64,000 nt of DNA. It comes from Antedon mediterranea (Eukaryota; Animalia; Echinodermata). A program made the translations under genes and the position numbers. Below are positions 25,265-57,586 of the stretch, piece after piece (the first letter of the stretch is position 1; every line of letters starts with the position of its first letter). The notes below the pieces were generated by a model. It was not told where the DNA came from. It made no database searches and was given only the letters and a program-made list of their open reading frames with translations. Where the stretch lies: NCBI RefSeq assembly GCF_964355755.1, contig NC_092673.1, positions 5,642,001-5,706,000 of the forward strand, read 5' to 3'.

Positions 25265-25544
25265 TTGCGCCCCTATATAGTTTTTGATAAATTACTAATA
25301 ATGTTATGGTATCGATAGATTGTAAGCCAGCTGAATGGTTAGTTCTTGAGTCTCGTAATGTAACGCTGTAGTATTAGGTTAGGGTTAGAGAATTGATTTG
25401 ATACATATATATATATATATATATATTTAATATTTGTTTTACTCACCATCTTCTTTATTGACCATCATCTTTTCTCATCATTTTCTTAGAGGAATGTTTT
25501 TTTTTTGTTTTTGTTTTTTTTAATGAAAATATAACTTCAAGTCA

Positions 25545-25735
25545 ATGATAACAGCGCGCTTCATTGTTAAGCATTCAGGAAGACCATCATGATAACAGCG
25601 CGCTTCATTGTTAAGCATTCAGGTAGACCATCATGATAATCAGCGCGCTTCATTGTTAAGCATTCAGGTAGACCATCATGATAACAGCGCGCTTCATTGT
25701 TAAGCATTCAGGTAGACCATCATGATAACAGCGCG
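25545..25735. repeat. 44-bp tandem repeat x4.3 near island left end (also 31028-31218, ~38375-38566)
   Basis: Unit ATGATAACAGCGCGCTTCATTGTTAAGCATTCAGGTAGACCATC, near-identical copies, no spacers. Confidence 0.93.
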
Positions 25736-26036
25736 GCGCTTTATCGGAAAATTTTTACTAGAATCGGTAGTATACATTTTTATTTTATTCGATGAGAAGT
25801 GTATAATAATTACGCGATGTTATTTCTTACAGTAAACATACTATCTGTACATAATCATTATAAAGTGCCCGTTTATCAATGGTATTCTGGCATGTGTAAT
25901 GATTAAAACAGAGAACGAGACGACTAAATTTCATTCGTTTTATTGGCAACACACACGCACAAAAAATGTATACAATGTAATTTATATAAGACCATAAACA
26001 TAATATGAATGCACGGAGGTATGGTATGAAATCATT

Positions 26037-26973
26037 TCATAACGTTTGTTTTGAGCACGTACACGGTGAAAGTTTCTTTTCACCAGTCTTGTAAACCAAT
26101 GGTCTGAATGCGTGCAGTTTGTCCTTTTCTATAATTGCATCTTCTACCAGTCTTATATGGCGTAAATAAGTGTCCACGCCGTGTCCAAATCGTTCTCTCA
26201 GTTTAATCTTCGTACCATCGGACAACATTCTAATCCACGCTTTTCTTCGTTGAACGTGCGACGGTTCGGCTTCAAGAAATTGTGGTTCTTCTAACTTGAA
26301 TCTTAATCTATCACGATCTACTACCTCGGTTGTTGGATTTCGAAGCGTTTGTGTCAGATACGGATTTTTACACTTGTGTACCGGTAGACTACCGCCGTTC
26401 TTTTCGGCCAATTGCTGAATGTCTAACGTCTGAAACACATCTCTTGTACTACGATCCACGTACATGATGGTTTTACGTTCATTCATATTTTTAAACACGC
26501 ACTTTTCCAATACACTCTTGATCATCGATTCGTCGGCTTTCACTTTATAATGCTTACACGCGTCTTCCAATGAATTCAACGTCAACAGATTTACGTGAAA
26601 GAATACGTTCGGTGGTGGTGTTTCCGAGATGATCAAAGAAGAATTTATCAAGTGTCTCAAGTCGTTTGTTAGCAAATTCACACCGTTTCTCAGCTCATCC
26701 GCTTCGAACTCGTCATTTACCAGAACGCGTATTCGATTACCTCGGCACGCGTTTTTATCTTTGAGCACAACCTTTGTGCACAATTCGAGTATTTTTTTCA
26801 AGCGCCTATGTTGTGGCAAAAAGGCGCTAACGTGTACCATAAAGGCTCGAGCGTTCGACGTTTCCAATACCAATCTGCACGTGTGATCGTTGTTCATCAC
26901 CGGCGGTGGCATCGGTAGTCTATCTCTGCTACCGTCATATGATCTGCATTTCAACACCCTTAAACTGTCGGCA
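26037..26973 (-). pseudogene. C-terminal ~310 codons of virus-like helicase gene, copy 1 (5' part deleted)
   Basis: ORF 26037-26957 is nearly identical to 31574-32806 and keeps the original C-terminus (..VYKTGEKKLSPCTCSKQTL*); AATAAA on - strand at ~25939-25944. Confidence 0.75.
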
Positions 26974-28240
26974 CTTCACTCCACTTCTGAGAATCATCTT
27001 GAGCCTTAAGCGAAACCTTTAGTTGGCGGTGAAAACGTTCAACTAATCCATCTGACATAAGATTCGACCACGTCCACATAGACTTGGTAGGACCACTACC
27101 TTCATCGGATGGTTATACTTACCTACTTACATGTATCGATCGCTTTACAAGATGGCCAGAAGCCATATCAATCACCAATATTACCGCTGAAACTGTAGCC
27201 AAAGCGTTTGTCACTGTTTGGGTATCCAGATTCGGCGCGCCATCCACCATCACTACAGACCGTGGTCGTCAGTTCGAATCGGCACTATTCACCGCCCTAT
27301 CTAACATGTTGGGCACAAAACGCATTCGAACAACATCTTACCATCCTATGTCTCCGGACAGCGGTCAAAGTTGATTTAGGCTGTTCTTCATCGGAACTGG
27401 TGTATGGAGCAACCCTGAAACTTCCAGGGCAGTTTGTCGCGCCTACTGATATCGCCTCACATGAACCTGCGAATTACGTACATATATTGCAAAGACACAT
27501 GCAGAATATTCGACCAGTGCCAACACGAGCGAATCAACGCACCGCACAAATCCACGACGATTTGCGTGAATGTACTCACGTGTTTGTTCGTTGCGATAGC
27601 GTAAAGAAACCTCTTCAGTCTCCTTACAATGGGCCATTTAAAGTTTTAAACAGAACTGACAAATACTTTGTTTTGAGCATCGCAGATAAACATGAAACTG
27701 TTAGTTTGGACAGACTAAAAGTCGCCTATGTTAATAATGATAAAGCTATTAACAACTTTCCAGAATCGTCAAGGCAACCGGAAGCAGTGCTTTCCTCAAC
27801 CGCAAGTACTATTCCAGTCGCACCTCCGCCACGGCAAACGCGTAGCGGACGACATGTACACTGGCCACGTAAGCTTGCAGATTATGATTATTGTGCTGGA
27901 AGTTTTATACTAGAAACATTTTTTTTTATTCATCGCTCGCTAACATTTCATTTGCGATCTAGAGGGGAGCTGATGTAGAGGCAATTTGCATATGTGTTAG
28001 CAGGTGTAACGAACGGCATGCAAACCTTTTTATTCTTTGTCTCTCTCTCAACTACCGACCGTCGAACAAGCAGGACGTATTTGTTTTACTTACCGTTGTT
28101 TGTTAACTCAAGGAACTTTGCGTATCCTGTACATGTACAGAAGAAACTATATTATTGGAATATATTATGTGTATATAATTACGGAGCCAAGTATAAGAAG
28201 TTACTAATGATATTTGGACCCAATGCATGCTCTCACAACA
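26974..28240 (+). mobile_element. Gypsy/Ty3 LTR-retrotransposon 3' fragment (integrase, PPT, 3' LTR), copy 1
   Basis: Integrase [43 protein letters not shown] module PYNGPFKV, PPT AGAGGGGAG at 27961, probable LTR TGTAG..CAACA at 27974-28240. Inverted integrase piece ([11 protein letters not shown]) at 26974-27050. Confidence 0.85.
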
Positions 28241-29344
28241 CAGTATAGTGGGTAAGTTGGATCCTACTAAATGTCTAAACAGAAATATTTTTCAATGCTT
28301 CTCTCAAAATCCCCGAGCACTGTCACGTGTGGAACATAGCTATTTATCTTGGTTCGTTTTTTGACGTTCCACGACCCAATCGGCAATTGAAATGTTTAAA
28401 TGCATATTTTATTGTCGCCGTTGCTGAATCGTCTCGTTCTCGACAGGTGTCACATATGATGTACAAAGTATTCTAAAGATTAAATTACTAAACAATGCAT
28501 ATTTCACTGGTACTTCACTTTTGAAGCAATAAAGTTCTGTGACATAACAAGATAAATTAGCACATATGTGTATAATATATTAGTGAACACAAAAGCAATT
28601 AGCTTAAGTGTAACTATAATTGTGTAAGCCGGTAGCCAGGAGGGTTTGTAGGGTTTTCCTAAAGTGTCCAACAGCTGGTAAATAGGTCTAACTTATGACA
28701 CTAATGTTATGGCCAATTTAGCCAGCAGGCAAATTATTTTCATCTACTAGGTAGGCCCATGGAGAAATAAGTTAGGAACTTTTCTCCATGGTAGGCCTAA
28801 ATCTACCTTTTTATGGAAAAAAGATCCCCCTTGCCCTGTAAAAATCCTGGCTACGGGCAGTTTTGCAATTGGACTAACATAATGTAGTGCATTAGCCCAT
28901 TTATTAGTATAAATGATACTAATTGTTAAGTTTATCCTTGTGATATAAGGTATATAATGTGTAAGGTAGATATGTATATGTATATTGAAGATTAAAAAGA
29001 TCACACCACCGATTTGGAATTTATTGTCCCTTTTCTCTTCATTTGCGTATTCTTTATTTCTCAGCACACATTTGATGAACATGTAATCACCCCAGTACAG
29101 TACAAAAGAACTACAAGCCTACACAAGCCTACTGTGGTTTTTTCAGGAAACTCTACAATATGGAATTATGCGCTAATGTTAGATATGATAAAAACTCCTG
29201 TGCTATAGCTCAGGTATTTTCTGATAAATCAAAATAAAGCAAAATAGTGTTGAGATGCACTCTCCCATGCCCAAACCAGCCTAGAAACATATTTTGGCGC
29301 ATATAGTGGCCTATTGCCGAAAGCATCTAGGAAATCTGTCTATT

Positions 29345-30747
29345 TGTGTGATAGGTACCCCTGGGAGTAGATGTGCACCTCCCCATGCCCTTTGTGTGTG
29401 ATAGTTATCCCTGGGAGTAGATGTGCACCTCCCCATGCCCTTTGTGTGTGATAGTTATCCCTGGGAGTAGATGTGCACCTCACCATGCCCATGTGTGTGA
29501 TAGTTATCCCTGGGAGTAGATGTGCACCTCCTCATGCCCATGTGTGTGATAGTTACCCCTTGGAGTAGGTGTGCACCTCTCCATGCCCCACTGTGTGTGA
29601 TAGTCATCCCTGGGAGTAGATGTGAACCTCCCCTATGCCCCTGTGTGTGAAGTATGTGTGTGCTAGTTACCCAAGGGAGTAGATGTGCACCTCCCCTATG
29701 ACCCTGTGTGTGGAGTATGTGTGTGATAGTTACCCTTGGAAGTAGATGTGCACCTCCTCATGCCCCTCCTCCCCATGTGTGTGATAGTTACCCTTGGAAG
29801 TAGATGTGCACCTCCTCATGCCCGCTGTGTGTTATAGTTATCCCTCGGAGTAGATGTGCACCTCCCCATGCCCCAGTGTATGATAGTTACCCCTGCGAGT
29901 AGATGTGCACCTCCCCTATGCCCCTGTGTGTGGAGTATGTGTGAGATAGTTACCCATGGGAGTAGATGTGTACCTCCCCATTCCCCCTGTGTGTGATAGT
30001 TACCCCTTGGAGTAGATGTGCACCTCCCCTATGCCCCTGTGTGGATTATGTGTGTGTGATAGTTACCCCTGGGAGTAGTCATGTACTGTACCTCCCCACG
30101 CCCCCTGTGTGTGATAGTTATCCCTGGGAGTAAATGTGCACTTTCCCTATGACCCTGTGTGTGGAGTATGTGTGTGATAGTTACCCTTGGAGTAGGTGTG
30201 CACCTCCCCGTGCCCAACTGTGTGTGATAGCTATCCCTGGGAGTAGATGTGCACCTCCCTATGCCCCTGTGTGTGGAGTATGTGTGTGATAGTTACCCTT
30301 GGGAGTAGATGTAAACCTTCCTATGCCCCCCTGTGTGTGATAGTTATCCTGGGAGTAAATGTGCACTTTCCCTATGACCCTGTGTGTGGAGTATGTGTGT
30401 GATAGTTACCCTTAGAAGTTGATGTGCACCTCCTCATGTCCCCCCCCCCCCCCCCGTGTGTGTGATAGTTACCCTTGGAAGTAGATGTGCACCTCCACAT
30501 GCCCCCTGTGTGTTATAGTTATCCCTGGGAGTAGATGTGCACCTCCCCATGCCCCAGTGTTTGATAGTTACCCCTTAGAGTAGGTGTGCACCTCCCCATG
30601 CCCTACTGTGTGTGATAGTTATCCCTGAGAGTAGATGTGAACCTCCCCTATGCCCCTGTGTGTGGAGTATGTGTGTGATAGTTACCCATGGGAGTAGATG
30701 TGTACCTCCCCATTCCCCCTGTGTGTGATAGTTACCCCTTGGAGTAG
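29345..30747. repeat. GC-rich minisatellite, copy 2
   Basis: Same array as 23863-25264. Confidence 0.95.
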
Positions 30748-31519
30748 TTGCGCCCCTATATAGTTTTTGATAAATTACTAATAATGTTATGGTATCGATA
30801 GATTGTAAGCCAGCTGAATGGTTAGTTCTTGAGTCTCGTAATGTAACGCTGTAGTATTAGGTTAGGGTTAGAGAATTGATTTGATACATATATATATATA
30901 TATATATATTTAATATTTGTTTTACTCACCATCTTCTTTATTGACCATCATCTTTTCTCATCATTTTCTTAGAGGAATGTTTTTTTTTTGTTTTTGTTTT
31001 TTTTAATGAAAATATAACTTCAAGTCAATGATAACAGCGCGCTTCATTGTTAAGCATTCAGGAAGACCATCATGATAACAGCGCGCTTCATTGTTAAGCA
31101 TTCAGGTAGACCATCATGATAATCAGCGCGCTTCATTGTTAAGCATTCAGGTAGACCATCATGATAACAGCGCGCTTCATTGTTAAGCATTCAGGTAGAC
31201 CATCATGATAACAGCGCGGCGCTTTATCGGAAAATTTTTACTAGAATCGGTAGTATACATTTTTATTTTATTCGATGAGAAGTGTATAATAATTACGCGA
31301 TGTTATTTCTTACAGTAAACATACTATCTGTACATAATCATTATAAAGTGCGCGTTTATCAATGGTATTCTTGCATGTGTAATGATTAAAACAGAGAACG
31401 AGACGGCTAAATTTCATTCGTTTTATTGGCAACACACACGCACAAAAAATGTATACAATGTAATTTATATAAGACCATAAACATAATATGAATGCACGGA
31501 GGTATGGTATGAAATCATT

Positions 31520-34500
31520 TCATAACGTTTGTTTTGAGCACGTACACGGTGAAAGTTTCTTTTCACCAGTCTTCTAAACCAATGGTCTGAATGCGTGCAG
31601 TTTGTCCTCTTCTATAATTGCATCTTCTACCAGTCTTATATGGCGTAAATAAGTGTCCACGCCGTGTCCAAATCGTTCTCTCAGTTTAATCTCCGTACCA
31701 TCGGACAACATTCTAATCCACGCTTTTCGTCGTTGAACGTGCGACGGTTCGGCTTCAAGAAATTGCGGTTCTTCTAACTTGAATCTTAATCTATCACGAT
31801 CTACTACCTCAGTTGTTGGATTTCGAAGCGTTTGTGTCAGATACGGATTTTTACACTTGTGTAGGCCTACCGTTAGACTACCGCCGTTCTTTTCGGCCAA
31901 TTGCTGAATGTCTAACGTCTGAAACACATCTCTTGTACTACGATCCACGTACATGATGGTTTTACGTTCATTCATATTTTTAAACACGCACTTTTCCAAT
32001 ACACTCTTGATCATCGATTCGTCGGCTTTCACTTTGTAATGCTTACACGCGTCTTCCAATGAATTCAACGTCAACAGATTTACGTGAAAGAATACGTTCG
32101 GTGGTGGTGTTTCCGAGATGATCGAAGAAGAATTTATCAAGTGTCTCAAGTCGTTTGTTAGCAAATTCACACCGTTTCTCAGCTCATCCGCTTCGAACTT
32201 GTCATTTACCAGAACGCGTATTCGATTACCTCGGCACGCGTTTTTATCTTTGAGCACAACCTTTGTGCACAATTCGAGTATTTTTTTCAAGCGCCTATGT
32301 TGTGGCAAAAAGGCGCTAACGTGTACCATAAAGGCTCGAGCGTTCGACGTTTCCAATACCAATCTGCACGTGTGATCGTTGTTCATCACCGGCGGTGGCA
32401 TCGGTAGTCTATCTCTGCTACCGTCATATGATCTGCATTTCAACACCCTTAAACTGTCGGCAATCTCTTTCACGTCAACACCGACCGCAATTGATCCGTT
32501 TTCGTCGCAGTCTCCAGTCACACACGATTGGATTGCGAGTTTCCTAACGTACGCCAGTCGGGTCTCGTGAAAATCTAAATTTATTTTTATCCAGTATCTT
32601 TCTTCGTTGGTAAACTTTTTCGGCACCGATCCTAGATAATTGATGCTGGATTTGGGATCTTGAGAGTTTGACTGGCCCCTGTACGTAGGCCTACCGTATG
32701 TCGAGCGAAGACGGGCAAATGAGACAAGAAGCGTGCGGCTTGTGTAAGTTTTCCATTGAGCATAACGTAAATGTAATGTTTTCCCCTGTACTGTTTTGCA
32801 TTGCACATTCCTGCCATCATCACGTCCGATATTTCACGGTACTCGTTCGCATGTGACGAAAGATGAGCTTCCGTTGCCTCGCTACATTTGAACAGAAGCT
32901 GTTTTTGTCCGTTATCGTCCACTTTTCGAAACATCTTAATACTCCGTCCACCGTGCATGGCCAACAATATTGTTACATTGTTTGCGAGCAACACCCGTTT
33001 TGCGCGCTCTAAAATGGACAGAAGCGCCTCGGACATTACCATGTCGTGTAGTCGCTTCATGTCCTGTTGCATCAGCCACCGTTGATGTTTGGCTATGATT
33101 CTTGAATTGAGACAACAAGTGTTCTCGTTCGGTAATCGAGGTGTATTGGCGTGCAGAATTTGTAACGGACAGCCGTTCACTTGAATCACTGCATTGTGAA
33201 AGGCGCACAAACGTGCCAGGTCGATGAGTTTATTGATGGTTCTAGTTTCTGTGGCGAATCCGAATCGGACTCCTTGCCTTTCCATTTCGACAGATATTCT
33301 ATCGCAAGTCAACAGTAGCATACGATCGTCTTTGTACGAATCACCTTCCGATCGACGTGGATACAGACCGCACTCTGCCAACCGTACATGTTCCATTACT
33401 TTGTGGCGCAGAGCGCCGAATTGCGTTCGAATTTTTAAACGATCCAATTCCTTCTCGTATCCCTCCACTTTCTTGGGCACGTTGACAATCAACACCACTG
33501 GGTGCCACGTCAAAGGTGACAACTCGTTCGTTTAACGAGTTACACAAGTTTTTTTCGTTCATGGCCATTATGGTGGCATTATCGCAAACGTTGATTACGG
33601 TTCGAACACCGTGTCGAGTGGTTCCCGTGTTCGGATCCGTTACCTTCTCGGTTCGTTCGGTGCGCGTACAGCCGGAATCGAGTTCCTCTTTCATTATTGC
33701 CGCTTCTTGACTGCTTTCAATTGATAACGGATTCTTATCGCTTTTAGATCCAGACGACGGTGGCACAAATTCGTTCATGAAGCGTATTTTTTTTTAAATT
33801 GTTGTACTTTCGCTCATTGTCGACGAGCACGGCTTTCTGTGTTCGGTAAGTAACGTCGTCTGAGTAAGCGTTACCGATTACAGATTTAGCGGCTACCATC
33901 ACAGACGTTTTACCCGTAGCCTACCGGGAGGTCCTACCAGAATGGCGTTCATGGCCATCGCATCGTGTGGGCACACGATACGTATAGCCGACAGTAAAAT
34001 GTACAAAAGTTCACCTTTAGCGTTAGACACACCGGCTACATTACCTATCAGAGCCACCATGTTCAAAAGATATCGATAACCTATCGATATTTTCACGTCA
34101 GCTTCCTCTTCGTATACGAATGGAACAAAACTGCCGTCACTGTGTCAAGACGCGTTCATACACCAACCCTTCATCTCGGTATCCTACATATCGGCATACG
34201 ATTGCGTTATTACTTCGCTCATCTGCACGTGTTTTCCCATATGCACTTGCGTGTACATGTCGAAGAAAATTTTGGCGACAGTCTTGTCACGGTATCTTTC
34301 TGGAGTCTATTGCAAGTTGTGAAAATTCTTTCTCATCATCACTATGCCCGGATTCTTTGCCGTGTATTTTTCACCGTATAAATGCCTAAAATATAAAAAA
34401 AAACAATTATAAATCAAAAGTAAAACACGCACACTAGAATTTGTGTTGTGATGATGATGATGATGATGATAAAATACGTACCTCGAGTCTATGGTCACTT

Positions 34501-34610
34501 CGTTCTGATTCTGGTTGGTTACATACAGTTTTCCGATTGCCGAAATTTTGTCTTCGTCCAATTGCGCTGCATCATCGCGCATAGCGTGAACAAACAAATT
34601 TGTATTACTT
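31520..34610 (-). pseudogene. Virus-like AAA+ (MCM-like) helicase pseudogene, copy 2
   Basis: ORF fragments 34307-34597, 33899-34096, 33341-33778, 32632-33522 and 31574-32806 join through frameshifts and stops. Walker A AILVGPPGTGKTS (33906-33934, after removing a 5-nt insert), Walker B-like KIRFMNE, sensor-1-like TIMAMN, Arg-finger-like SLNER. GT-AG intron 34386-34481. Confidence 0.75.
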
Positions 34611-35593
34611 TGACTTTGACCGCTGTCCGGAGACCAAGAAGAACTAGAGGTAAAGTTTCACTCCACTTCTGAGGATCATCTCCGGACAGCGGTCAAAGTT
34701 GATTTAGGCTGTTCTTCATCGGAACTGGTGTATGGAGCAACCCTGAAACTTCCAGGGCAGTTTGTCGCGCCTACTGATATCGCCTCACATGAACCTGCGA
34801 ATTACGTACATAGATTGCAAAGACACATGCAGAATATTCGACCAGTGCCAACACGAGCGAATCAACGCACCGCACAAATCCACGACGATTTGCGTGAATG
34901 TACTCACGTGTTTGTTCGTTGCGATAGCGTAAAGAAACCTCTTCAGTCTCCTTACAATGGGCCATTTAAAGTTTTAAACAGAACTGACAAATACTTTGTT
35001 TTGAGCATCGCAGATAAACATGAAACTGTTAGTTTGGACAGACTAAAAGTCGCCTATGTAAATAATGATAAAGCTATTAACAACTTTCCAGAATCGTCAA
35101 GGCAACCGGAAGCAGTGCTTTCCTCAACCGCAAGTACTATTCCAGTCGCACCTCCGCCACGGCAAACGCGTAGCGGACGACATGTACACTGCCCACGTAA
35201 GCTTGCAGATTATGATTGCGGTTGAAGAAATTCTGTTATTTTATTGTGCTGGAAGTTTTATACTAGAAACATTTTTTTTTATTCATCGCTCGCTAACATT
35301 TCATTTGCGATCTAGAGGGGAGCTGATGTAGAGGCAATTTGCACATGTGTTAGCAGGTGTAACGAACGGCATGCAAACCTTTTTATTCTTTGTCTCTCTC
35401 TCAACTACCGACCGTCGAACAAGCAGGACGTATTTGTTTTACTTACCGTTGTTTGTTAACTCAAGGAACTTTGCGTATCCTGTACATGTACAGAAGAAAC
35501 TATATTATTGGAATATATTATGTGTATATAATTACGGAGCCAAGTATAAGAAGTTACTAATGATATTTGGACCCAATGCATGCTCTCACAACA
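34611..35593 (+). mobile_element. Gypsy 3' fragment (integrase C-terminus, PPT, LTR 35327-35593), copy 2
   Basis: [27 protein letters not shown]; preceded by an inverted integrase piece DDPQKWSETLPLVLLGLRTAVK. Confidence 0.85.
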
Positions 35594-36698
35594 CAGTATA
35601 GTGGGTAAGTTGGATCCTACTAAATGTCTAAACAGAAATATTTTTCAATGCTTCTCTCAAAATCCCCGAGCACTGTCACGTGTGGAACATAGCTATTTAT
35701 CTTGGTTCGTTTTTTGACGTTCCACGACCCAATCGGCAATTGAAATGTTTAAATGCATATTTTATTGTCGCCGTTGCTGAATCGTCTCGTTCTCGACAGG
35801 TGTCACATATGATGTACAAAGTATTCTAAAGATTAAATTACTAAACAATGCATATTTCACTGGTACTTCACTTTTGAAGCAATAAAGTTCTGTGACATAA
35901 CAAGATAAATTAGCACATTATGTGTATAATATATTAGTGAACACAAAAGCAATTAGCTTAAGTGTAACTATAATTGTGTAAGCCGGTAGCCAGGAGGGTT
36001 TGTAGGGTTTTCCTAAAGTGTCCAACAGCTGGTAAATAGGTCTAACTTATGACACTAATGTTATGGCCAATTTAGCCAGCAGGCAAATTATTTTCATCTA
36101 CTAGGTAGGCCCATGGAGAAATAAGTTAGGAACTTTTCTCCATGGTAGGCCTAAATCTACCTTTTTATGGAAAAAAGATCCCCCTTGCCCTGTAAAAATC
36201 CTGGCTACGGGCAGTTTTGCAATTGGACTAACATAATGTAGTGCATTAGCCCATTTATTAGTATAAATGATACTAATTGTTAAGTTTATCCTTGTGATAT
36301 AAGGTATATAATGTGTAAGGTAGATATGTATATGTATATTGAAGATTAAAAAGATCACACCACCGATTTGGAATTTATTGTCCCTTTTCTCTTCATTTGC
36401 GTATTCTTTATTTCTCAGCACACATTTGATGAACATGTAATCACCCCAGTACAGTACAAAAGAACTACAAGCCTACACAAGCCTACTGTGGTTTTTTCAG
36501 GAAACTCTACAATATGGAATTATGCGCTAATGTTAGATATGATAAAAACTCCTGTGCTATAGCTCAGGTATTTTCTGATAAATCAAAATAAAGCAAAATA
36601 GTGTTGAGATGCACTCTCCCATGCCCAAACCAGCCTAGAAACATATTTTGGCGCATATAGTGGCCTATTGCCGAAAGCATCTAGGAAATCTGTCTATT

Positions 36699-43514: not shown

Positions 43515-43641
43515 AGAAATACCGGAATGGTGTCCGGCGGGGGATAGTTTATTACCATTAGTTAAGGTCCTATGTAAAGCACCTAGAGGGGTCAGTGATC
43601 CATTAGGCCCTATATAAATACTGTTTATTATTATTATTATT
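43515..43641 (+). mobile_element. SINE/LINE 3' tail fragment
   Basis: TGTAAAGCACCTAGAG..TATATAAATAC followed by a (TTA)n tail. Confidence 0.5.
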
Positions 43642-43642
43642 T

Positions 43643-44553: not shown

Positions 44554-46022
44554 AGGCTGGTTTCCTGTCGACGTAAGAAGTCGAATTTTGCAACGACTCT
44601 TGCGTTTCATACGTTTCTTACGTCTCTTACGAAAGTTGAGAAAAAATTGACGTCGTTGACGTTAGTCAAGATCGTGTCAGGCCGCAGAGAAACATCTGTA
44701 GTTATGCTGCTCCCGAAAGTTGAAATTTTGGCTGTGAAACACACGTCGTATGCTTACGTCGATTTTAGTGTTGTTACGAAAGTTGAATTTTTTTTCTTTC
44801 GTCGGTCAGATTTATGACGTATTTGAAACAACATCTATGATTGGTGTTTCTTTTTAGAGCGGGTTTTATCATTTTTCGCGCGAAATGTTGAATGTTGTTA
44901 TTGTACCTGTAGCTACTCAGTGTCAGTGCAGCACACCAGCATATTATTTTTAGTAGATAGGCTAGGCCCTAGTATTAGTAATAATACTTAATTAATACTG
45001 TACTAATAGGAATGGATTTGACCAAAATATAATCAAACTAGCCTAGGAGCCAGGCTAATAGGCTAGGCCTATGCACTATTGTATGAACCAAAATATGAAT
45101 TAATTATTCTGGCCTTAGTAGGCCTAGCCTTAAATAGTTTTCAAAATTAAAAAACGGCAAATCATTTCGGGATTCCTATTATTATTAGACCTACCTATGG
45201 GCCCAGGCATACCGTACTCTAATCGAGCATGAGATAGTACTAACGCAGTAAGATACCCATTATTTACCTATAATAAGAATAAATTTGACAAAACAATATA
45301 AATTATACAAAAATCAAGCAAACATTTTTTTTTAAAGTTACATAATAATATTATATTGCTTACAAGGGCTTTCTATATCTTATCTTGTTGCAAATGTTCA
45401 TTATCGCGACGTTTCTACCGACAAATAGAACAGAAGAATGTCGGTTTCAATGCGGATTGTTTATTGCACGTCCATAAATAAGAGTATTATATTTTGATAT
45501 GAGTTGTAAACTCCCTGATTAGAACAATATTATATTGAAACTACTGTGCATTTGTAAAGTATGTACATTGTACAACATCGTAAAGTGGGCTAAAATTGTA
45601 GTAGTACGATAAATACATACAAATGTTATTGTCCGGCTATATTTCACTGTAAGGTCATACACATTACATCATAACTCTTGTCGCTCATTGGTTGCTTGTT
45701 ACGATTGCGCTTACGTCTCTTGCGAAAGTTGACTTCAAGTCAACTTTCGTAAGAGACGTAAGAAACGTGACGCAAGGGCGTTCATTCAAGCGTAAGATAA
45801 AAAATCCCGGTTTCCTGTAAAATCGGAAGAAAACGTCGTAACGCAACAATTGTTAGGTCATCGGTTTCCTGTAAAATCGTTTGTCGTTACCATTTTTCTT
45901 ACGTTACGTCGATTTTATAAATTTTCGATCGTAATCGGTTTCCTGTAAAATCCGCATTTCTTACGACAAATCGACGTAGTCGCAACAAAAGTGATGTTCT
46001 TACGTCGACAGGAAACCAGCCT
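44554..46022. mobile_element. Non-autonomous PIF/Harbinger DNA transposon
   Basis: Perfect 26-bp TIRs AGGCTGGTTTCCTGTCGACGTAAGAA, TAA target duplication (44551-44553, 46023-46025), subterminal GGTTTCCTGTAAAAT repeats. Confidence 0.88.
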
Positions 46023-46569
46023 TAATTCATAAATGTGTATTGTTTGTTTTAGCAACGTAATATTATTTCTATTGTGTCACTAGTTTTGTTGTTTTTGTTT
46101 TATCGAGAAGAAATAATGTTACCATAGTTTTATAAGGGCATGATTCGATATTATCAAGAATATTGTAATATATATCTTTTACCGGGTTATGCAGCGCATA
46201 ATGACAATGATTGTGGCTGGTAACCCCTTTTTTTTTTTTTTGGTTTTTAGTACAACGAACATCAGTTCAGAATGTTCCACAATGGAAAAATAATGTTAAA
46301 GGTAAATACAATACTAACGTTATATATCTATATTATATATATATTATATATATTATTATAATACATTGTCCTTCGTCGAGTGCAGACGTGTTTGAGCGGA
46401 GCTCTCACACGTATACGTTTTTAGATACAGTACTCGCTTACCTGTGATAGCATGTTCCAAGGATAAGTTACTAACTGCATGAGACCTGTATACCTACCTG
46501 GATAGTGAACGTATCGGTTGCATTAAATATAAGTACACTTTTGTTATTTATTCTAACTAAACATCTACA

Positions 46570-47256
46570 ATGGCCAACGTGGAAAACAATGAGCCAAATA
46601 TTTCTAATTTAAATATTAGCGCCGTTGAACCGAACACCTGGCTGTCGACTCTCATCAAGTCAATCATGGGCTGCAAAACCATTGCTGATATTAAACCAAC
46701 ATTATGCGGCGCAGTCACCAAGATTGTCTCCTTGGAAAAAGACATTACCATCCTCAATCTTGAAATCATCGGTAACAATCTGAGGTTTACTGGCATACCC
46801 GAACAAGCGGAGGATAGCGAAGGTACTGTTAATTTCCTTTCCTCATTTATTTCCAATACCACCGGCATCAAAATCGCTAATGATGATATACAACGAGCCC
46901 ATCGAGTTGGACCACGTAATACCACCAGGGATAAACCGAGACCACTTGTTGCATACTTTCTCAGATATTCCACTAAAGAAAGAGTACGCAAGGCAGCTCC
47001 AAAAGTGAGACCTAAATTTAAAAATAATAACATCTACGTAAATGATGATTTTATCAGCAGAGTGATAAGTAGAAGAAAGGCCTTATACTCATCGATGAAA
47101 TACCTGCATTCCAAAAAAGTAAAGGCCTGGCTCCACCTTGACAAGTTGCGTTACATAGATGCAAATGGTTATGTTCGCACATTCATCGACATGGATCATC
47201 TTGCCAAATACTACCCGAACCTCAAGGAAGCACATGCCCCCGAAGCTACTGAGTAA
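46570..47256 (+). CDS. LINE ORF1 protein (RRM-type, L1/CR1 ORF1-like), intact 228 aa
   Basis: NNLRFTGIPE, IQRAHRVG, KPRPLVAYF and IYVNDDF motifs typical of non-LTR ORF1; directly upstream of APE-RT. Confidence 0.85.
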   Translation: MANVENNEPNISNLNISAVEPNTWLSTLIKSIMGCKTIADIKPTLCGAVTKIVSLEKDITILNLEIIGNNLRFTGIPEQAEDSEGTVNFLSSFISNTTGIKIANDDIQRAHRVGPRNTTRDKPRPLVAYFLRYSTKERVRKAAPKVRPKFKNNNIYVNDDFISRVISRRKALYSSMKYLHSKKVKAWLHLDKLRYIDANGYVRTFIDMDHLAKYYPNLKEAHAPEATE

Positions 47257-47439
47257 TTCTAGTCGTCGCAATAATTAACTTTACTTTGACTCTACTTACC
47301 GTCAACCGAAATATTACCTATAATAAATTTTTATTTCAAGAATTGTTTATTTTGCTTCTCATTAATTATGTATTAATATATACAGTCTCATGCATGCTTA
47401 TTGCTGTATTTCTTTTTTAGATAACGTTATACGCAGCTA

Positions 47440-50400
47440 TTGTTAATGAATGTTAATTATCTTCACTTAGGCCTACTTCCTTTTTATGACTTTAATGTGA
47501 ACACTGAACTTACTAACAACAATGATATTTCTAACATAACCTTTAATCCAGTTAATTACAATGAAAATGACAAATATTATGAATCTTTTGATCAACTAAT
47601 TAATAATCTCAATTTACAGTCAGTTACCCTATAGATGAATGCAGCTTTTATGATTAATACTAAACTATCTCTCCTGCATCTTATTAGAAGTATTACGCAT
47701 AAAGTTAATGATCTCGAATGCCTTTTGAATTCAATTAATAACAAATTTTCCATAATCGGTATCAGTGAAACATGGCTTAATGAAAACTCCCCTATTCCTT
47801 TCATTGATAACTACTCCTTCTTTGCAAGCAATAGAAGCAATAATCAAATTGGAGGAGGAGTTGCATTTTTTATACGTAATGATATTAGCATTACAATTCG
47901 AAATGACTTAAAATTACCAGACGACCTTTCCGAATCACTTTTTGTTGAGATTGAAAATTCAAAGACAAAAAATGATATTATAGGCATTATTTACAGAGCC
48001 CCCTGTGGAGGGCTAGATTCTTTTACTAAATCCGTCGATAATGTATTGAACCAAATTAACAATGAAAACAAAAATTGTCATCTCATGGGAGACTTCAATA
48101 TTGATTTATTAAAATTCCATAACCATAAATTAACAAACACCTACCTAAATACTTTAATTTCCCATTCTTTTTTCCCAACTATTTCAAAACCAACTAGGAT
48201 TACCTCAACTTCGGCCACCTTGATTGATCATTTTTATTCCAAACAATCTAACTATTGCTGGTGTTTTACTTAATGATCTCCGACCACCTTCCTATATTTC
48301 AGTTCATTGATCAAGAAAATAATGATCAAAACCTTGATGATAATAGCGCCAACTATTCATTTCGTATAAACGACCTAAATGCCTTATCGATTGATTTAGA
48401 AGGTGAAGACTGGTCTATGATATTTGATTGTGACCCAAGATTGAGTTTTGATATATTTATTGAAAAATTTACAAATATCCACTCCAGACACTTGGTTAAA
48501 AGTACAGTAGTATAAAATCAAATAAAACGTTTAAACAACCATGGATGTCATCTGCTCTCTTAAAATGTAGTTCACGGAAACATAAACTTTATAACAAATA
48601 TATGCACACACGTAGTAATAATGACAAACTAAACTATACAAAATGTAATAATATTTTCACTAATCTTTGTCGCACTGCTAAAAAGAATTATTATACTTCC
48701 CAGTTTGATAGATATAAAGGTAATCTGAAGAACACATGGCTTGTAATAAATTCTGTTTTAAATAAAGGTAATAATAATAACAAGCACCCGAATCTAATTA
48801 AAGACGGTGATAATATTTACAAAACTCAAAAAGAGATATGTGAATCGTTTAACAACTATTTTTCTACAATTGGTCCTAATCTTATTAATAGTATGCCAAC
48901 TATAACTGATCCATTATCTTATCTTCATTCTGCGTTTGCCAACTCATTTTATATTAGCCCAGTTTCAATTGATGATGTTAACCTAACTATATAAAATCTA
49001 AATTCTAATAAAGGGTCTGGATCTGACGGTATTACTGCTCGTGTCTTAAAATCTGTATCTCCCTTAATCATCCACCAACTTACCCATTGTATAAATTCAT
49101 CTTTTTTATCTGGCACTTTTCCAACACACTTAAAACTAGCTAAAGTTGTGCCCATTTTCAAGAAAAGTGAACGAAGTCAATTATCTAATTACCGGCCAAT
49201 ATCACTACTTTCAGTCTTTTCCAAAATTATTGAAAAACTCATGTATTCTAAACTTTCTGATTATCTCACAAAATTTTATATACTTAATAAACGCCAATAT
49301 GGTTTTTCGAAAAAATCACTCTACATCCCATGCCGTTTTAGATCTTATTAATAATATTACAAATTCATTTGAATCAAAAGAAAATTTATTAAGTTTATTT
49401 ATTGATCTTTCAAAGGCCTTCGATGTTATTAATCACGATAATTTAATTTAAAAACTTGAGTGCTATGGAATTAGAGGTATTTCATTGAATTGGTTTAATA
49501 GTTATTTGAAAGATAGAAAACAATATGTTGCGTTAGGATCTTGTACATCGTCGACGATGGATATTACTTGTGGAGTGCCACATGGATCTGTGCTTATATA
49601 TGTTAATGATCTGGCTAATGTCAGTAACAAAATGCAAGTAATATCCTTCGCCGACGACACCACCTTATTTTACTCTAATTCAAATATTGATTTATTATTT
49701 ACTACGTTCAATGATGAATTAACAACATTTTGTGACTGGTTTATTTCAAACAAATTACTTATTAATACTCTTAAAACAAATTATTTAATCTTTCACAATT
49801 CTCAACGTAAACTAAAAGTTGATAACCTAAATATACTTCTTGACGGAATTCAAATTGAACGCAAAACTGAAACACTTTTTTTAGGTGTATATATTCATGA
49901 AAACCTTAAATGGACCAGTCATCAAAATTACGTTTCGAAAAAAATATCAAGATCTATTAGTATTATTAACAGACTTAAGCACTTCTTCCCTCTAAATATT
50001 TTAATTTCTCTTTATAACACACTTGTACTTCCTTATTTCCAGTATTGTAACATTATTTGGGCTGCAGATTACTCTTCTAATATTGCTAGATTAACTATTA
50101 TAGAACCTCATCTGAACCCCTTTTTAAACGTTTTGGTATATTAAAATTAACGGATATCCACAATGTTCAAGTTGCCAGTTTTATGTTTAATTATTTTAAA
50201 AACCAACTTCCTATTTCTATGATTGATATGCTCTGTAAACGTACCAAATTTCACAATTACAATTTAAGAACTTTTCATTTAAACATTCCTTTTGCTAGAC
50301 TTACCAAAACTAATTTTTTTATAACTATATCAGGTCCTAATTTGTGGAATCATATCCCGCCAAATATCAAAACGTCAATATCATTATTTACTTTCCGAAA

Positions 50401-50443
50401 AAAGTTAAGGAATCATTATATATCTAAATATTATACTGCTTAG
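47440..50443 (+). pseudogene. LINE ORF2 (APE endonuclease + reverse transcriptase), multiple frameshifts and stops
   Basis: Fragments 47635-48273, 48255-48515, 48545-48994, 49148-49451, 49485-50144 and 50183-50443 are collinear. Confidence 0.9.
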
Positions 50444-51873
50444 TTAATATGCTTATTATCATTATTTATACTCATATACTATTTATGTCTTACACAAAAT
50501 ATTAGTTGTTGTTTATTATTGCAATCTTTAATCTATACTATATATAATGTATATATAGTATATACTATATATATACATAAATTATAATTTATGTATACAT
50601 ATTTTTTTCATTTACCAATATCGGTATTTATTTCATTTATAATTATCATGAAACTATTGAAATATAATTTAAATAATTTTTATAAAGAAGATGTTATTAT
50701 TAGTTGTATAATAAAACCAGTTTTCATTTTTTTTTTTATTTCAGTAACAAGAATACCAATACTGCAGTAAGTATTTTTTATTCTCTTGACATTACATTTT
50801 TGTTTATTTATTCGATTCATATATATATATATATATATATAATTTATTCATATAGTACATTTGTAAGAGTTCCCTCGGAAAAGCACCCGTTCAACCCGAA
50901 AGGAGAGGAAACCGTGGAAAAAGGTAAATTAAAGTAAATGAATTGTTGGCGAACGATACTATTTAACGCTGCTCATATGATTGTTATAATATATATTAAA
51001 TATTATAAATATTATACTGCTTAGTTAATATGCTTATTATCATTATTTATACTCATATACTATTTATGTTTACACAAAATATTAGTTGTTGTTTATTATT
51101 GCAATCTTTAATCTATACTATATATAATGTATATATAGTATATACTATATATATACATAAATTATAATTTATGTATACATATTTTTTTCATTTACCAATA
51201 TCGGTATTTATTTCATTTATAATTATCATGAAACTATTGAAATATAATTTAAATAATTTTTATAAAGAAGATGTTAGTTATGTTATTATACTGTAATTTT
51301 TTATCCTAAATTATATAATTATATATTCTAGGTTTATTTTTATTTTTTTAGTAGGCCTAATGTGTTTAGTTGTGGGTCCCTACGAGACAAGTTTTTAACT
51401 TCTAGAAGGGATCCATGATAATAATGACTACCAACTTGATGCTCATTGGGATAAATATTCAAAGAGAACACGATTCAGATGTGTACTCTGAACACATCCA
51501 GTATTAAATCCTTCTCCGAGAAGCTTTGTATATATTTTAATTGGTTGCAAACTAGCACCAGCACCACGTATTATTAGTTGTATAATAAAACCAGTTTTCA
51601 TTTTTTTTTTAAATTTCAGTAACAAGAATACCAATACTGCAGTAAGTATTTTTTATTTTCTTGACATTACATTTTTGTTTATTTATTCGATTCATATATA
51701 TATATATATAATTTATTCATATAGTACATTTGTAAGAGTTCCCTCGGAAGAGCACCCGTTCAACCCGAAAGGAGAGGAAACCGTGGACAAAGGTAAATTA
51801 AAGTAAATGTATTGTTGGCGAACGATACTATTTAACGCTGCTCATATGATTGTTATAATATATATTAAATATA
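50425..51873. repeat. Local duplication in A-B-A-C-B order
   Basis: ~50425-50695 matches ~51006-51275 (LINE 3' UTR); ~50695-51003 matches ~51570-51873 (two small exons). Confidence 0.85.
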
Positions 51874-52449
51874 TTTGATTTCATATAGAATCAACACAGC
51901 AACAACCGTTACATTCGACGGGTCGTTGTAAACGCCTTCAACGAACCAGAGGCGTGTTTTCATGGTAGGTTCACAAACTATTATTCTTGTTCATGCAGAA
52001 AATGCTCCCAAAACCCGAAAATTATTATTCTTTATTTACGTCATGTTTTCTTTCACAGGCAAAGCACACTTCTGCCTTTTAAGGAAATTTACGCCTTTGA
52101 TTCCGAAGACGACAACAACAGCAATGTAGACTACCTGATCGCTTCGTCGTGCTCTGCTGTACATAACAGTGACACGGCAAAAGTAGCAGATATATTAAAA
52201 TGGAATGGCTTCACGTATATTAGAATGAAGCCAACAAAAGACAAACAAACAATAATGAGGTATGTCAAAAGATGCAAACGCGTTATTGTATTCCAAAATC
52301 TATTATTTGAAGATTACGTCAATGACGTATTTACTATCTGCAGCGAAAATTTAGGAATGGTGGAGACAACTCTACCATTCAAAAATAACATTTTTGATAT
52401 AGCGATTTTTTCTAGTGGTACTGTCATGCGCGTATTGAAAAGAAAATAG
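51620..52449 (+). CDS. 3' exons of a compact spliced gene ending in a TIR/SEFIR-like domain (5' part disrupted by the LINE)
   Basis: Exons 51620-51641, 51725-51792, 51889-51964 and 52059-52449 join in one open frame through GT-AG introns of 83, 96 and 94 nt. Last exon reads VDYLIASSCSAVHNSDTAKVADILKWNG..IMRYVKRCKRVIVF. Domain call is by eye. Confidence 0.6.
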
Positions 52450-52760
52450 TTTCATTGTCAATAATTTGTCTTTTGTTGGTTTAATTAAATAATTCCTTTC
52501 ATCATTAGTTGTACAAGTATACATTTTTAACTAAATATATATATATATCACCGGGCGTTTTAGAATTAATGTTCATTGCCTGATGTGTTTAATATATAAA
52601 AGTATCTCTTCGGAGATCCCGCCTCGTGAATAAAAATACTGAAAGATGAGGGCGTATCAATTTGATCTCTGGTGCGCGTGCGTACAACTGAGGACTAGTG
52701 CTGTTCCACCGTACCACGCCGAGAATGTTAAAGAGTCGCTATCCAATCGAGTTTGAACAA

Positions 52761-52803
<43 letters not shown>

Positions 52804-53248
52804 TTGTTTGTGAATGTTAACCTTCGTTGTACGTGAATCCATACTTTTGTAATATCTGCTGCTAGTGGTGCATATTGTTATGTACATAGAGCATCACGGT
52901 TTACTGAAATTTCAGTTTGTTTAATGTTTTATTTAATGATAGAATTTCAATTATTATTGTACTGTATTTATTGTTTATGAATTTAAATTTCGTTAACTTG
53001 GAAATCGTTTTAACAAATAAAAAAAATTTAAAAAGTTAGATCACGTTTGTTTGTTTTTATTTATTCATTTCTTGTGTGTTCTGTCATCCTGTGTGCAGAA
53101 TTTAGGACGACTACTGAATGCGGATAAAAACTCTATTCGAAGACATGCACAGAAAACCGCTTACATACAAACTTTAATTGTCGAATACAATTGCACCAAA
53201 GTGAAACTATTGAAAACACATTAAATAAATGATTGTTTGATACCGCCC

Positions 53249-55813
53249 CACAGTGGGTCAGAATTGGTTCAAAGTGTGCCAAAAGTCTATACGCATGAAT
53301 AAATATTGATTACCTTAATTTTTAAAGGATCTAAGGGGTTTTCAGACCCGTAGAATTTAATGGAAGTATTTTTAAATAGGTATGACGTAATACAAATGGT
53401 GTTTTCTGATTGGTTGAGGCGAATGTGCTTGTAATTCTTATGTCGATTGATATTACATTCATTATTGAAAGTGTAAGGGTTTCTATTACACCCAATAAAT
53501 CCAACTGGAACATTTTCTTAATATATTAGACGTCATAAAATAATAATGTTTGATTAGATGACTTTAATTCTCATTGCAATATCATGTGTGATTAAATTGC
53601 ATCCATGATTAAAGATCCACAGAGTTCAATGAAACCATCTTTTTATTGTTCAGTATGATGTCATTACAAATACTGTTTTCTGATTGTGTGAATAATATTA
53701 ATATTGAAAATAGGTTTTTATTGTATGTTACAAATAAGGGTTTAAATGACTGAAATACATCACTTATGTTTGTTTTCATTGTATGTTTTCGTCGATAGAC
53801 TCTTCGCTCATCATACCTATCAGTAATACAGAACTCGAATTAATTGATGAACCATGAACTAGGAGAACATGTACACTCACTGGCATTTTATACCATGGAT
53901 AGAGTTGTATATATAACTCTGCTGTTTTTCGGCAGTAGTCCCTAAAAAGGGTCTAAGCACGTACTGGATTTACATCCAACCCGCAAATTTCAGCGAAAGT
54001 CTCCTTTTCCTGGAGAGCTAGCTCTGCAAGCTATGTTGCTGTTCCTTGTTTCTTTCCTATATGTTCTTTAAACCGATCGTGTATTTCTTTTCTTCATATC
54101 GGCAACGATGGCTTTGTCACTATCAGACGAAATACGCCACTTTTTTTACTGGCATTCTGTACCAATATGAATTAGCATTTCGAAGCACCTACTCCATTTG
54201 TGTAGTGGCGAGAGCCATAGCTGTAGGCTTCTTCACTTGACGATGGGAGTTTATCCAAATCATTAAACTGTTTTGGAGTAGCTTCACATATATAACATCG
54301 CATTGAATACTTGGTTTCAGTCAAAGCATTCTCGACATTTTGGTCAACTATTGAATTGTAAATTGTAGTGTATTTAGATGTTGTCTTTTCTGTTTTCATC
54401 TGCAGCCAGTTCATAGTTAATTAATATCAGATAATATATTGAATTGCAGGTGTAAGGTCGGCAAAATCACGAGGAAGTATCTTTATGTTCAACTACTTCT
54501 TTAATTTCTTCTTTTTTTTACTGAACAATTCGAAGTGCAGTTTGGTCCAGCAAGCTTTGAAGGGGTACTCTTGCCGAATCTTCTTTAACCGTTATATTAT
54601 TTACGTAGCATCTATGCTTAGCTTCCCTCACGTTCCACAAACCTGTTTGGTATGACTGTTTTGTCATATCAGTTTCAACTTATAGCTAAAAGTGACAAAG
54701 CTTTTTCACTAGTAAACTTGATCGGTTCTGGTTTTTTTTCGGATATTAACTTTCTTATTTTAGCTGGTCTTAATGGTGTTAGCATTGCAAACTTCAGCAC
54801 ATATTTTAAATGTGAATTTTGCTTATATACGCCTTGTGAAGCAGCATAGAGAAGTTCTTCTGGTACTCTGACTAATAATAGTTGATGAAATGAACTTTGT
54901 GACGGCCATACTTGTACCATCTTCCTCATAAATAATAAAGAAAATGGTTTGATAGTTTTAGTAGTATACTCCAAAAGTTCTTTTGGTATGTTCTTGTCAT
55001 TCCTTACATTGTAATGTAAACGCAATTCACGTAAACATACATTGCAGGCTAGTTCAATGTTGGTAATTAAACCAGCCGAATGGACAGCTTTAAAGGTTGT
55101 ATTTTGATATGGAGGCCATGTTACCTGAGTGTACCTACATTTATGAATGCTTATTCTCACACTGGTAGCATTCTCTTTTCAAATACAGACGCGTCGTGGA
55201 AAGGTTTTCTCTTCGTCAAGTTCGTGCGATTGCGATCAATGTGTCAATGAAAATGCATTATACATTTATTTTAAAACGGGACATTTAAATAGCTTCCTAT
55301 ATGCAATGTCGCGAATTTTCGCAGCCAAATTTGGTATTAACGTAAAGCTCAAGCTTTGCTCGAAATATTAATGTCAAAATTAGCGCGCGAATCGACGCGA
55401 ATCCAAACTATTTTAGTGGTTTTACTTTAAAATATGATTTTTTGGTATTTTTGGGCTATATTTTGTGATTTTTAACCCTAAAATAAAGCAATAATCGAAA
55501 ATGTTATTTTACTGCCTAATAGTATTAATAACAGACAACAATTTCATGCAGTATCAAATCCATTGCTTTTTTCTAGAAAAAATAGCAGCGAATTTATCAA
55601 AACTGTTGTTTTTGCTCATTTTAAGTGAAATGTCATGGTTTCTTCAAGTTTCCATGGTTACAAGACACTATTAAAATTTACAAAAAATAAAATTATTAGT
55701 GGATTTATATAATTTAAGATGTCTTCTTCCTAATCCAATATTAAAAAGTTCGGAATGCCACATTTACCATTTTGGACTTTTGGCACACTTTGAATTGATT
55801 CTGGCCCACTGTG
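53249..55813 (-). mobile_element. Transib (RAG1-like transposase) DNA transposon, both ends intact, coding region decayed
   Basis: 39-bp TIRs CACAGTGGGTCAGAATTGGTTCAAAGTGTGCCAAAAGTC (53249-53287 / 55775-55813, 4 mismatches); 5-bp TSD CGCCC (53244-53248, 55814-55818). Minus-strand motifs KFTSEKALSL, SARVPLQSLLDQT, FCRP, SMRCYICEATPKQFN, SPLHKWSRCFE, LYPWYKMPVSVHVLLVHG, IGMMSEES. Confidence 0.93.
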
Positions 55814-56001
55814 CGCCCGCTCGAACAAATCTTCCGCGTGGTTCAGTAAACGTTATGACGTTATCTGCTAACACTGAGGGTGCTTGACTTGTTCATTATC
55901 ATGGATGGGAGCCGTGAAAATCATTTGTGTATGGGTAAATAATAAAAATATACAGAGGGCGCAATCACACAAAAAGTCAGAAGAGTAAACAAGTTTACTA
56001 T

Positions 56002-57544: not shown

Positions 57545-57586
<42 letters not shown>

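Follow-up and report, generated by a model that had tools for sequence, protein, structure and literature searches.

A probable fragment of a large DNA virus within a minisatellite of Antedon mediterranea, with a main gene likely related to the alloherpesvirus core gene Allo56

Introduction

Alloherpesviruses are described from fish and amphibians (PMC12567609), and endogenous ones are described from teleosts, as Teratorn (PMC10175614, PMC5601938), and from sturgeon. Among invertebrates, molluscs are the only hosts listed in a 2025 review (PMC12096621); published herpes-like sequences of marine invertebrates are likewise divergent and are placed, in their descriptions, by polymerase and terminase trees between Orthoherpesviridae and Malacoherpesviridae, and no link to Allo56 was found there. 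Here we analyse a stretch of 64,000 nt from the echinoderm Antedon mediterranea (contig NC_092673.1, positions 5,642,001 to 5,706,000; the window in what follows), in which a foreign island of 17.9 kb splits a host minisatellite. The island is probably a decayed fragment of a large DNA virus, likely an undescribed relative of alloherpesviruses, and its main gene is likely an orthologue, judged from a structural model, of the core gene Allo56.

Two endogenous systems and one gene family are the closest to this locus. Teratorn is a fusion of piggyBac and an alloherpesvirus, described as an intact multi-copy element of 180 kb that includes ORF56 (PMC10175614, PMC5601938); the definition given for such ends comprises terminal inverted repeats starting with CCYT and a TTAA duplication (PMC10175614). 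The integrated AciHV-3 of lake sturgeon is described as a whole intact genome with telomeric hexamer arrays, the unique region, which has inverted ends of 13-20 bp and 44-bp tandem repeats, lying between direct repeat arrays (PMC12031113). Allo56 (the IcHV-1 ORF56 family, ORF111 in RaHV-2) is described as a core protein of unknown function encoded back-to-back with the polymerase in two alloherpesviruses, and is among the five of twelve core genes given without known function (PMC12567609). Its open reading frames (ORFs) in two sturgeon viruses measure 3,660 and 4,383 bp (PMC9740441, PMC12031113). In the literature we found no report of a function for Allo56, nor of an alloherpesvirus-like or Allo56-bearing lineage in invertebrates, which Rosani et al. 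2023, on herpesviruses of invertebrates, or the supplements of a bioRxiv preprint may already list.

Results

The main gene of the island, of about 1,400 codons, was delimited by means of six related proteins (Table 1). An exhaustive HMMER search with the 299-aa middle ORF of the gene retrieved six unnamed protein clusters among 1.84 billion proteins (1,356-1,479 aa, E 3e-47 to 3e-9), 28-48% identical to each other over their length and with open frames throughout. The window gene was colinear in tblastn with all of them (P0001 to P0006), over residues 7-1372 of P0001 and with 34-81% identity per segment. Single ORFs of the window gave no match in Pfam, PDB, ESM Atlas or two word-indexed protein searches, and an alignment search returned P0001 alone. 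The GPPGxGKS (Walker A) loop was intact in five of the six relatives and the downstream motifs were common to all six; the Pfam family AAA_5 gave weak matches, below its cut-off, in four (E 0.001-0.04). In the window copy the loop and core are broken: frameshifts occur near 43270, 41270, 41140, 40835 and 40050, stops at 41657, 41534, 41495 and 38924, and a deletion at ~40375, and a Gypsy piece replaces part of the N-terminal third. As read from its sequence, this copy cannot make the protein. The gene labelled a helicase in the original prediction was larger than the ORFs then listed, which belong to a single gene. A first guess made by eye, a UL9-type helicase of superfamily (SF) 2, was dropped because the relatives show an AAA+-type P-loop.

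A predicted GT-AG intron of 97 nt interrupts the window copy and is covered by a contig from a second organism, B (40372-41957). A second intron may be present near 43640-43437; a short repeat of high depth was observed at 43434-43557, within the 5' part of the gene and possibly inside this second intron.

The neighbourhoods of the relatives were virus-like. A metagenome scan yielded three loci, L001 to L003, of which two contained true relatives; L003, with an RFC-like AAA match only, was discarded. In L001, where the scan covered 21.7 of the 37.9 kb of the contig, the Allo56-like gene was back-to-back with a family B polymerase of 846 aa (PF00136, E=6.5e-18), and within 8 kb there were a nucleoside kinase (dNK) and a primase with the domain PF03121 Herpes_UL52 (23 bits vs. 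a cut-off of 21). In L002 the gene followed a primase related to that of L001 (E=4e-32) and a terminase-like N-terminus (PHROG_9, weak, E=0.0022). Neither a herpes-type primase nor a terminase ATPase was present in the window. Comparison of the six-frame ORFs of L001 and L002 with the window returned matches only for the Allo56-like gene and its overlapping frames, plus one LINE match of 25 residues (E=0.005). Major capsid protein, triplex, protease, SF1 helicase and Allo37, Allo54, Allo60 and Allo64 were not seen in the window or in the 21.7 kb of L001, with no profile match in the libraries scanned, and IMG/VR, scanned with the L001 polymerase and with the alignments of helicase and primase, yielded no relatives. 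The presence of AT-rich stretches and of a LINE-like piece suggests that the L001 locus may also be endogenous.

Other features of L001 were recorded. The polymerase (4984-7524) has a cysteine-rich C-terminus, and its best PDB match was Pol delta. After the Allo56-like gene, at 11893-14571, four small plus-strand ORFs have starts resembling signal peptides, two of them being TNF/C1q-like by eye, without any Pfam match beyond one of low complexity. Shortly past the primase there is an ORF of 366 aa (20001-21101), with a size near that of Allo60 (1,041-1,053 bp in the published descriptions), a gene described as following the primase in two alloherpesviruses (PMC12567609).

The relationship to Allo56 was drawn from structure and gene order. 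Residues 15-930 of the L001 protein were modelled with AlphaFold2 from six sequences, at a mean predicted local distance difference test score (pLDDT) of 51. Foldseek with this model in BFVD gave six matches at E<=0.001, of which the top five had a probability of 1.00 (E 3.5e-11 to 6.6e-6) and the next 0.25. These five were Ranid herpesvirus 2 ORF111, lake sturgeon herpesvirus Allo56, a Ranid herpesvirus 4 protein and two unnamed proteins, the low-confidence model reaching E values of 3.5e-11 and 5.4e-11 for alloherpesvirus Allo56/ORF111. The indication of orthology is structural only, through a relative with which the window gene is colinear; the back-to-back order of polymerase and Allo56-like gene in L001 gives independent support to the Allo56 identity. 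Besides these matches and this order, the family resembles Allo56 of Alloherpesviridae in length and in the proximity of a UL52-type primase, whereas the host is probably an invertebrate, and the window copy differs further by its predicted intron and its broken frame. A single-sequence model of the C-terminal ORF of the window was unusable (pLDDT 32) and was left out of the structure search.

In the PDB, MCM subunits were the best matches of the relative's model (top Foldseek match E=0.035; six of the top nine VIA-align rows). The order of P-loop and downstream motifs in the relatives was judged by eye to be MCM-like. The plain Walker A loop and AAA+-like motifs of the relatives lead us to predict an MCM-like AAA+ ATPase or helicase that forms rings, in contrast with Allo56, listed as of unknown function. 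It resembles the MCM helicases of SF6 in that motif order and in the weak best PDB matches, but the relatives are of ~1,400 aa, have unrelated N- and C-terminal regions and lack a canonical acidic Walker B pair. The protein may instead be a helicase of SF3/D5 type.

The same data bear on whether the virus belonged to another group of large DNA viruses (mirusvirus-like, malacoherpesvirus-like or a separate family) that shares the Allo56-like gene, in which case "alloherpesvirus-related" would be an overstatement. The short polymerase with Pol delta as best PDB match, the introns in the window genes, the low TM-scores given below and the placement of the published invertebrate sequences speak for it. 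We consider it unlikely, given that all three named top structural matches are alloherpesviral, that the polymerase-Allo56 order is kept in L001 and that the primase carries Herpes_UL52. The published sequences and the island could be of the same lineage.

The island interrupts a G+C-rich minisatellite of 50/63-bp units, which breaks off at 25264, 30747 and 38097 and continues in the same orientation from ~56004-56009, in agreement with the original prediction, which had placed the resumption at ~56002. Subtraction of four nested transposons left a core of 7,791 bp, close to the ~7.7 kb proposed, and the absence of an integrase, polymerase or capsid gene of its own was confirmed among the island ORFs scanned. 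The left junction was present in a contig of run X1, and a contig of X3 (55975-56098) bridged the right junction with no differences; the window's own two junctions are therefore real, being seen in contigs of independent runs. The observed/expected CpG ratio was 1.05-1.61 in 11 core pieces (>=1.16 in 10 of them) as compared with 0.59 ± 0.27 in 37 host windows, none of which reached 1.16. The nested transposons were CpG-rich as well (0.85-1.54), so a high ratio is a sign of young or foreign DNA in general, viral or not.

The three left ends resulted from a tandem duplication. In self-comparison, 22959-26973, 28441-32462 and 35794-39810 were 99.2% alike, and 27351-35791 matched 34679-43142 at 99.5%. 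The duplicated block runs from 900 bp of host flank (from 22959 in unit 1) through 43142, inside the large gene. Units 2 and 3 differed by four substitutions and six small indels over ~7.35 kb, units 1 and 2 by 21 substitutions over ~5.1 kb, with different deletions. The left ends are thus copies of one junction, and one insertion, not three, took place. Near-identity of units 2 and 3 would also be expected if the island were host sequence or an assembly artefact, and X1 offers a further point: a contig of 3,480 bp matched unit 3 with one substitution at a depth of 14.7 vs. 28.8 for the host flank, which, being a contig depth and no copy number, is ill-suited to three copies; the triplication may therefore be in part private or a product of mis-assembly. 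For the island as a whole such an origin is most improbable, as contigs from independent runs contain both of its junctions, it harbours nested host transposons that made target duplications, and the only relatives of its gene sit in virus-like contigs.

Within the duplicated units, a 6-nt in-frame insertion was observed in units 2 and 3, but not in unit 1 (26379 / 31862 / 39210 being the positions in the three units), and creates the palindrome TAGGCCTA. This 8-mer occurred 15 times in the window and comparable insertions were seen in other individuals; the insertion may be a transposon excision footprint common in the Antedon genome.

Read as those of a mobile element, the ends of the island make a weak case. 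An imperfect inverted match of ~32 nt links 38098 with 55964, and the window contains four copies of TTGCGCCC, one at each of the three left ends and an inverted one at 55957-55964 (expected number 0.45; four copies reached in 1 of 100 shuffles). With the first 30 nt of the island as query, 0.24% of 5000 random 190-bp host windows scored as well, and with the first 300 nt 6.6% of 2000 random host windows did; the match thus exceeded chance for the shorter query but not for the longer one. The first 10 nt of the left arm agreed at seven positions with the next minisatellite bases, so that part of the "inverted end" may be junction microhomology. The inverted ends that had been proposed held for the left arm, for the match and for the four copies of the motif, but the right arm is internal and foreign sequence goes on to 56003; the 44-bp subterminal repeat stood as described. 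The same motif was found once each in L001, L002 and L003, with no evident terminal position. AGTAG is present on both sides of the island but also within every minisatellite unit, and no target-site duplication was seen at the junctions. In the contigs, where the two ends were examined separately, no circle junction was seen.

The right end segment behaved differently from the left end. In X8 and X9 (organisms B and C) it continued past 56003 into a common sequence other than the minisatellite, and its contig depth was ~4,000-4,500 vs. 140 for the host flank in X8 (~30x) and 737 vs. 216 in X3 (~3x). The left end had depths of 23-81 vs. ~110 for the gene in X6 (organism B), a run other than those of the right-end figures. 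Some X3 copies of this segment had a different left neighbour, and a short hairpin lies at its end, at ~55981-56003. The segment may represent a solo repeat of the virus, or else a small element of unrelated origin.

These ends recall an internally deleted, non-autonomous relative of Teratorn that would prefer the minisatellite and whose inverted ends would be acted on by a transposase from another locus. The inverted match begins exactly at the left junction and a subterminal repeat follows, the right end segment shows the elevated depths in X8 and X3, Teratorn itself is a herpesvirus-piggyBac fusion (PMC10175614), and a bioRxiv preprint reports mobility genes in deep-branching endogenous Herpesvirales. 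We find this account rather unlikely: the right arm stops 39 bp before the junction with sequence running on in X8 and X9, the left end has a low depth in B, duplication of a single junction accounts for the three left ends, and the island shows neither a TTAA nor another target duplication, lacks a CCYT start and has no transposase gene of its own. No piggyBac transposase was found among the island ORFs scanned, although a deleted derivative could lack it. Neither do both junctions carry the inverted repeats and target-site duplication of a non-autonomous transposon. The locus thus shares with Teratorn endogenous DNA related to alloherpesviruses, and differs from it as a small decayed fragment from an intact multi-copy element.

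The layout also resembles that of integrated AciHV-3, with direct arrays around an island that has inverted arms and a 44-bp tandem repeat. By this analogy the minisatellite would be the terminal repeat of the virus itself, and the island the remnant of a unique region integrated by repeat recombination, as proposed for the sturgeon virus. This is very unlikely, since in a 1,094-bp contig of X8 the host flank is linked to roughly a single minisatellite unit (56130-56180), the remainder of the contig being unlike the right end of the island; the viral right end in X8 and X9 is not followed by minisatellite; and the minisatellite, which is not telomere-like, has a CpG ratio of 0.06 compared to 1.05-1.61 in the core. 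The array is host-minisatellite-like and one core gene is left, unlike AciHV-3. The X8 contig fits a candidate empty site in organism B. Returning to a captured viral fragment, the inverted arms and the high-depth right segment may, by analogy with AciHV-3, be relics of viral terminal or internal repeats.

The four nested insertions (Gypsy, Harbinger, LINE and Transib) were found as had been noted, the labels Gypsy, Harbinger-type and Transib-type being our assignment from characteristic motifs and features. The PDB entry weakly matched by the element at 53250-55813 is one that we take to be Transib. Empty sites were present for Harbinger in contigs of X1, X2 and X6 and for Transib in contigs of X8 and X9; these two elements therefore arrived after the island sequence. 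A joint on opposite strands (41983/42028, four runs) was considered as a shared Gypsy insertion and rejected, because complete Gypsy elements at other sites account for it. Another local tandem duplication, internally deleted, was observed at 50415-51872, over the 3' end of the LINE and the following island exons.

The second gene of the island was predicted from splice signals by eye and gave no match in Pfam, NCBIfam, PHROG or PDB. The ORF at 51889-52449, previously labelled TIR/SEFIR-like, is by eye the apparent last exon of this gene (~52060-52449). It gave no Pfam match at E<=0.1 and no PDB match at E<=10, and NCBIfam and PHROG lent the label no support either; ESM Atlas led elsewhere, to C39-like peptidases at 0.88, which is a lead only. 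The "immune-signalling cargo" suggested for the island thus found no support.

Contigs from nine runs of four studies, representing three organisms (A, B and C), contained the left part of the island. X9 contigs gave no cover of the host flank and X1 contigs none of 55851-55998, and neither was counted as evidence. In organism B the viral copy differed from the window at 82 of ~3,400 sites (2.4%, X6) and was not joined to Gypsy at 41962, whereas the host flank differed at 48 of 491 sites (9.8%, X8); in a second sample of organism A (X2, X3) divergence was ~1.3-1.4% in gene and flank alike. In organisms B and C the viral sequence was not joined to minisatellite. A gene that has diverged less than the flank fits viral DNA younger than the host split, and this comparison of sequences suggests that closely related viral DNA may have entered A and B after they separated, or that B carries the virus itself.

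The island lies between the converging host genes SLC5A7 and EDRF1-like, in flanks of 31-35% GC, and an Rfam scan of 22000-57000 gave no match. Both this flank composition and the presence of a Transib-type element suggest an invertebrate host. In the host flanks we also observed small internally palindromic repeats of a family like miniature inverted-repeat transposable elements (10543-10717, 11105-11229, 14477-14757, 15033-15175, 16579-16698, 56825-56932 and 63333-63515), a coding tandem repeat of 39 bp (13-aa units) in an exon of the EDRF1-like gene (58043-58314) and, in an intron of the latter (59981-60797), an element with long inverted arms of ~270 nt, 87% alike.

Table 1. Positions of the features in the window (LTR, long terminal repeat; RT, reverse transcriptase; LINE, long interspersed nuclear element).
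Feature	Position	Strand	Basis or remark
Foreign island, probably virus-derived core with nested transposons	38098..56003		17.9 kb, splits minisatellite
Decayed Allo56-like gene	~43860..38870	-	~1,400 codons, predicted AAA+ ATPase; tblastn to P0001-P0006
Predicted 97-nt GT-AG intron in Allo56-like gene	41734..41830	-	donor and pyrimidine-rich acceptor in sequence
Predicted multi-exon gene	44471..52449	+	splice signals by eye; interrupted by Harbinger and LINE
Left inverted arm	38098..38129	+	begins at junction
44-bp tandem repeat	38376..38566	+	4.3 copies, 97% alike
Right inverted arm	55933..55964	-	inside the real junction (56003)
Right end segment	55814..56003		high contig depth in some runs; in organisms B and C the sequence goes on past 56003
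Two tandem duplicates of flank, minisatellite and island left part	22959..35793	+	unit 1: 22959-28440; unit 2: 28441-35793
Gypsy fragment, rearranged (integrase C-terminus and LTR)	41962..42975	+	sequence reading; LTR end and higher contig depth
Harbinger-type element, non-coding	44553..46023		46-nt inverted arms, TAA duplication
LINE, degraded (ORF1, endonuclease, RT)	~46365..51420	+	Pfam PF03372 E=3.8e-8, PF00078 E=1.6e-4; local duplication 50415-51003
Transib-type transposon	53250..55813	-	CACAGTG ends, 5-bp duplication; weak PDB match to DNA transposase, E=0.18
Host minisatellite, left part	36699..38097	+	counterparts in duplicated units 23863-25264, 29345-30747
Host minisatellite, right part	56004..56230	+	
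SLC5A7, host high-affinity choline transporter gene, left neighbour	3151..18212	+	last exon matches human CHT1, E=6e-40; remaining exons by eye
EDRF1-like host gene, 3' exons, right neighbour	56551..62356	-	Pfam PF23723 on three exons; last exon (56551) by eye, no Pfam match

Discussion

Taken together, the island is probably a decayed fragment of a large DNA virus, likely an undescribed relative of alloherpesviruses, that was likely captured once at a break in the minisatellite and afterwards invaded and partly duplicated, with a main gene that is likely orthologous to Allo56 and predicted to encode an MCM-like ATPase. The original prediction of a candidate new endogenous virus was borne out in this form, by the Allo56-like gene and by intact relatives of it that stand among polymerase, primase, nucleoside kinase and terminase-like genes. 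Its second half, a non-autonomous derivative with inverted ends that targets the repeat, found no support: the right arm lies inside the island, contig depth is unequal at the two ends in organism B, no joint with minisatellite occurs in B or C, and neither a transposase nor a target-site duplication was seen. The fragment is without means of moving itself, and a contiguous viral piece explains the core without internal deletion. Membership in Alloherpesviridae, which would turn on host, capsid genes and tree placement, is not asserted; the island likely acts like an endogenous herpesvirus fragment.

Several observations weigh against this interpretation. In the AlphaFold2 model much of residues 12-350 exceeded a pLDDT of 70, but the ATPase domain stayed below 50, and TM-scores to Allo56 were 0.20-0.24 with an identity of 11-13%; the Allo56 link is thus a prediction from a low-confidence structure match and gene order. 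The MCM matches had Z<=6, lay mostly over a helical lid and are possibly generic. The L001 polymerase, of 846 aa, is about half the size encoded by the 4,863-bp gene of a sturgeon virus, the gene upstream is a primase in L002 and the multi-exon gene in the window, not a polymerase, and genes for capsid, triplex and protease did not turn up in the relatives, within the extent of L001 scanned. Accidental capture does not account for the inverted match of 32 nt or for the right end segment with its high depth, and the divergence between organisms compares two samples, X6 and X8, with 491 bp of flank.

As to the mechanism, a piece of viral DNA was most likely taken up while a break in the unstable minisatellite was being repaired, with help from short matches at the junctions; this would be microhomology-assisted end joining, with no part played by an enzyme encoded in the element. 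Once inherited, the fragment would have received the four host transposon insertions and undergone partial tandem duplication. The Allo56-like protein of the virus, as a predicted ring ATPase, would have acted in viral DNA replication beside the polymerase and the primase.

A wider proposal, which we put forward tentatively and do not favour at present, is that an undescribed family of compact, intron-bearing invertebrate herpesviruses related to Alloherpesviridae still circulates in related hosts, leaving fragments in their germlines together with multi-copy relics of its ends, and that Allo56, including that of fish and frog viruses, acts as a ring helicase of the MCM-like type.

As a dead fragment, the island has its worth as a pointer to a viral lineage. 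That the viral gene differs so little between organisms A and B suggests a recent or extant virus. If the interpretation is true, an Allo56-like gene in a probable invertebrate germline, together with at least six divergent relatives in public assemblies, would extend the lineage beyond vertebrates and bear on the origin of the herpesvirus families. An MCM-like ring helicase would, moreover, be of a type, SF6, that a 2016 survey reported as absent from eukaryotic viruses (PMC4889955). The predicted ATPase or helicase role would supply the missing function of a core gene of herpesviruses, and the clear P-loop of the relatives makes ATP hydrolysis and DNA unwinding by Allo56 directly testable.

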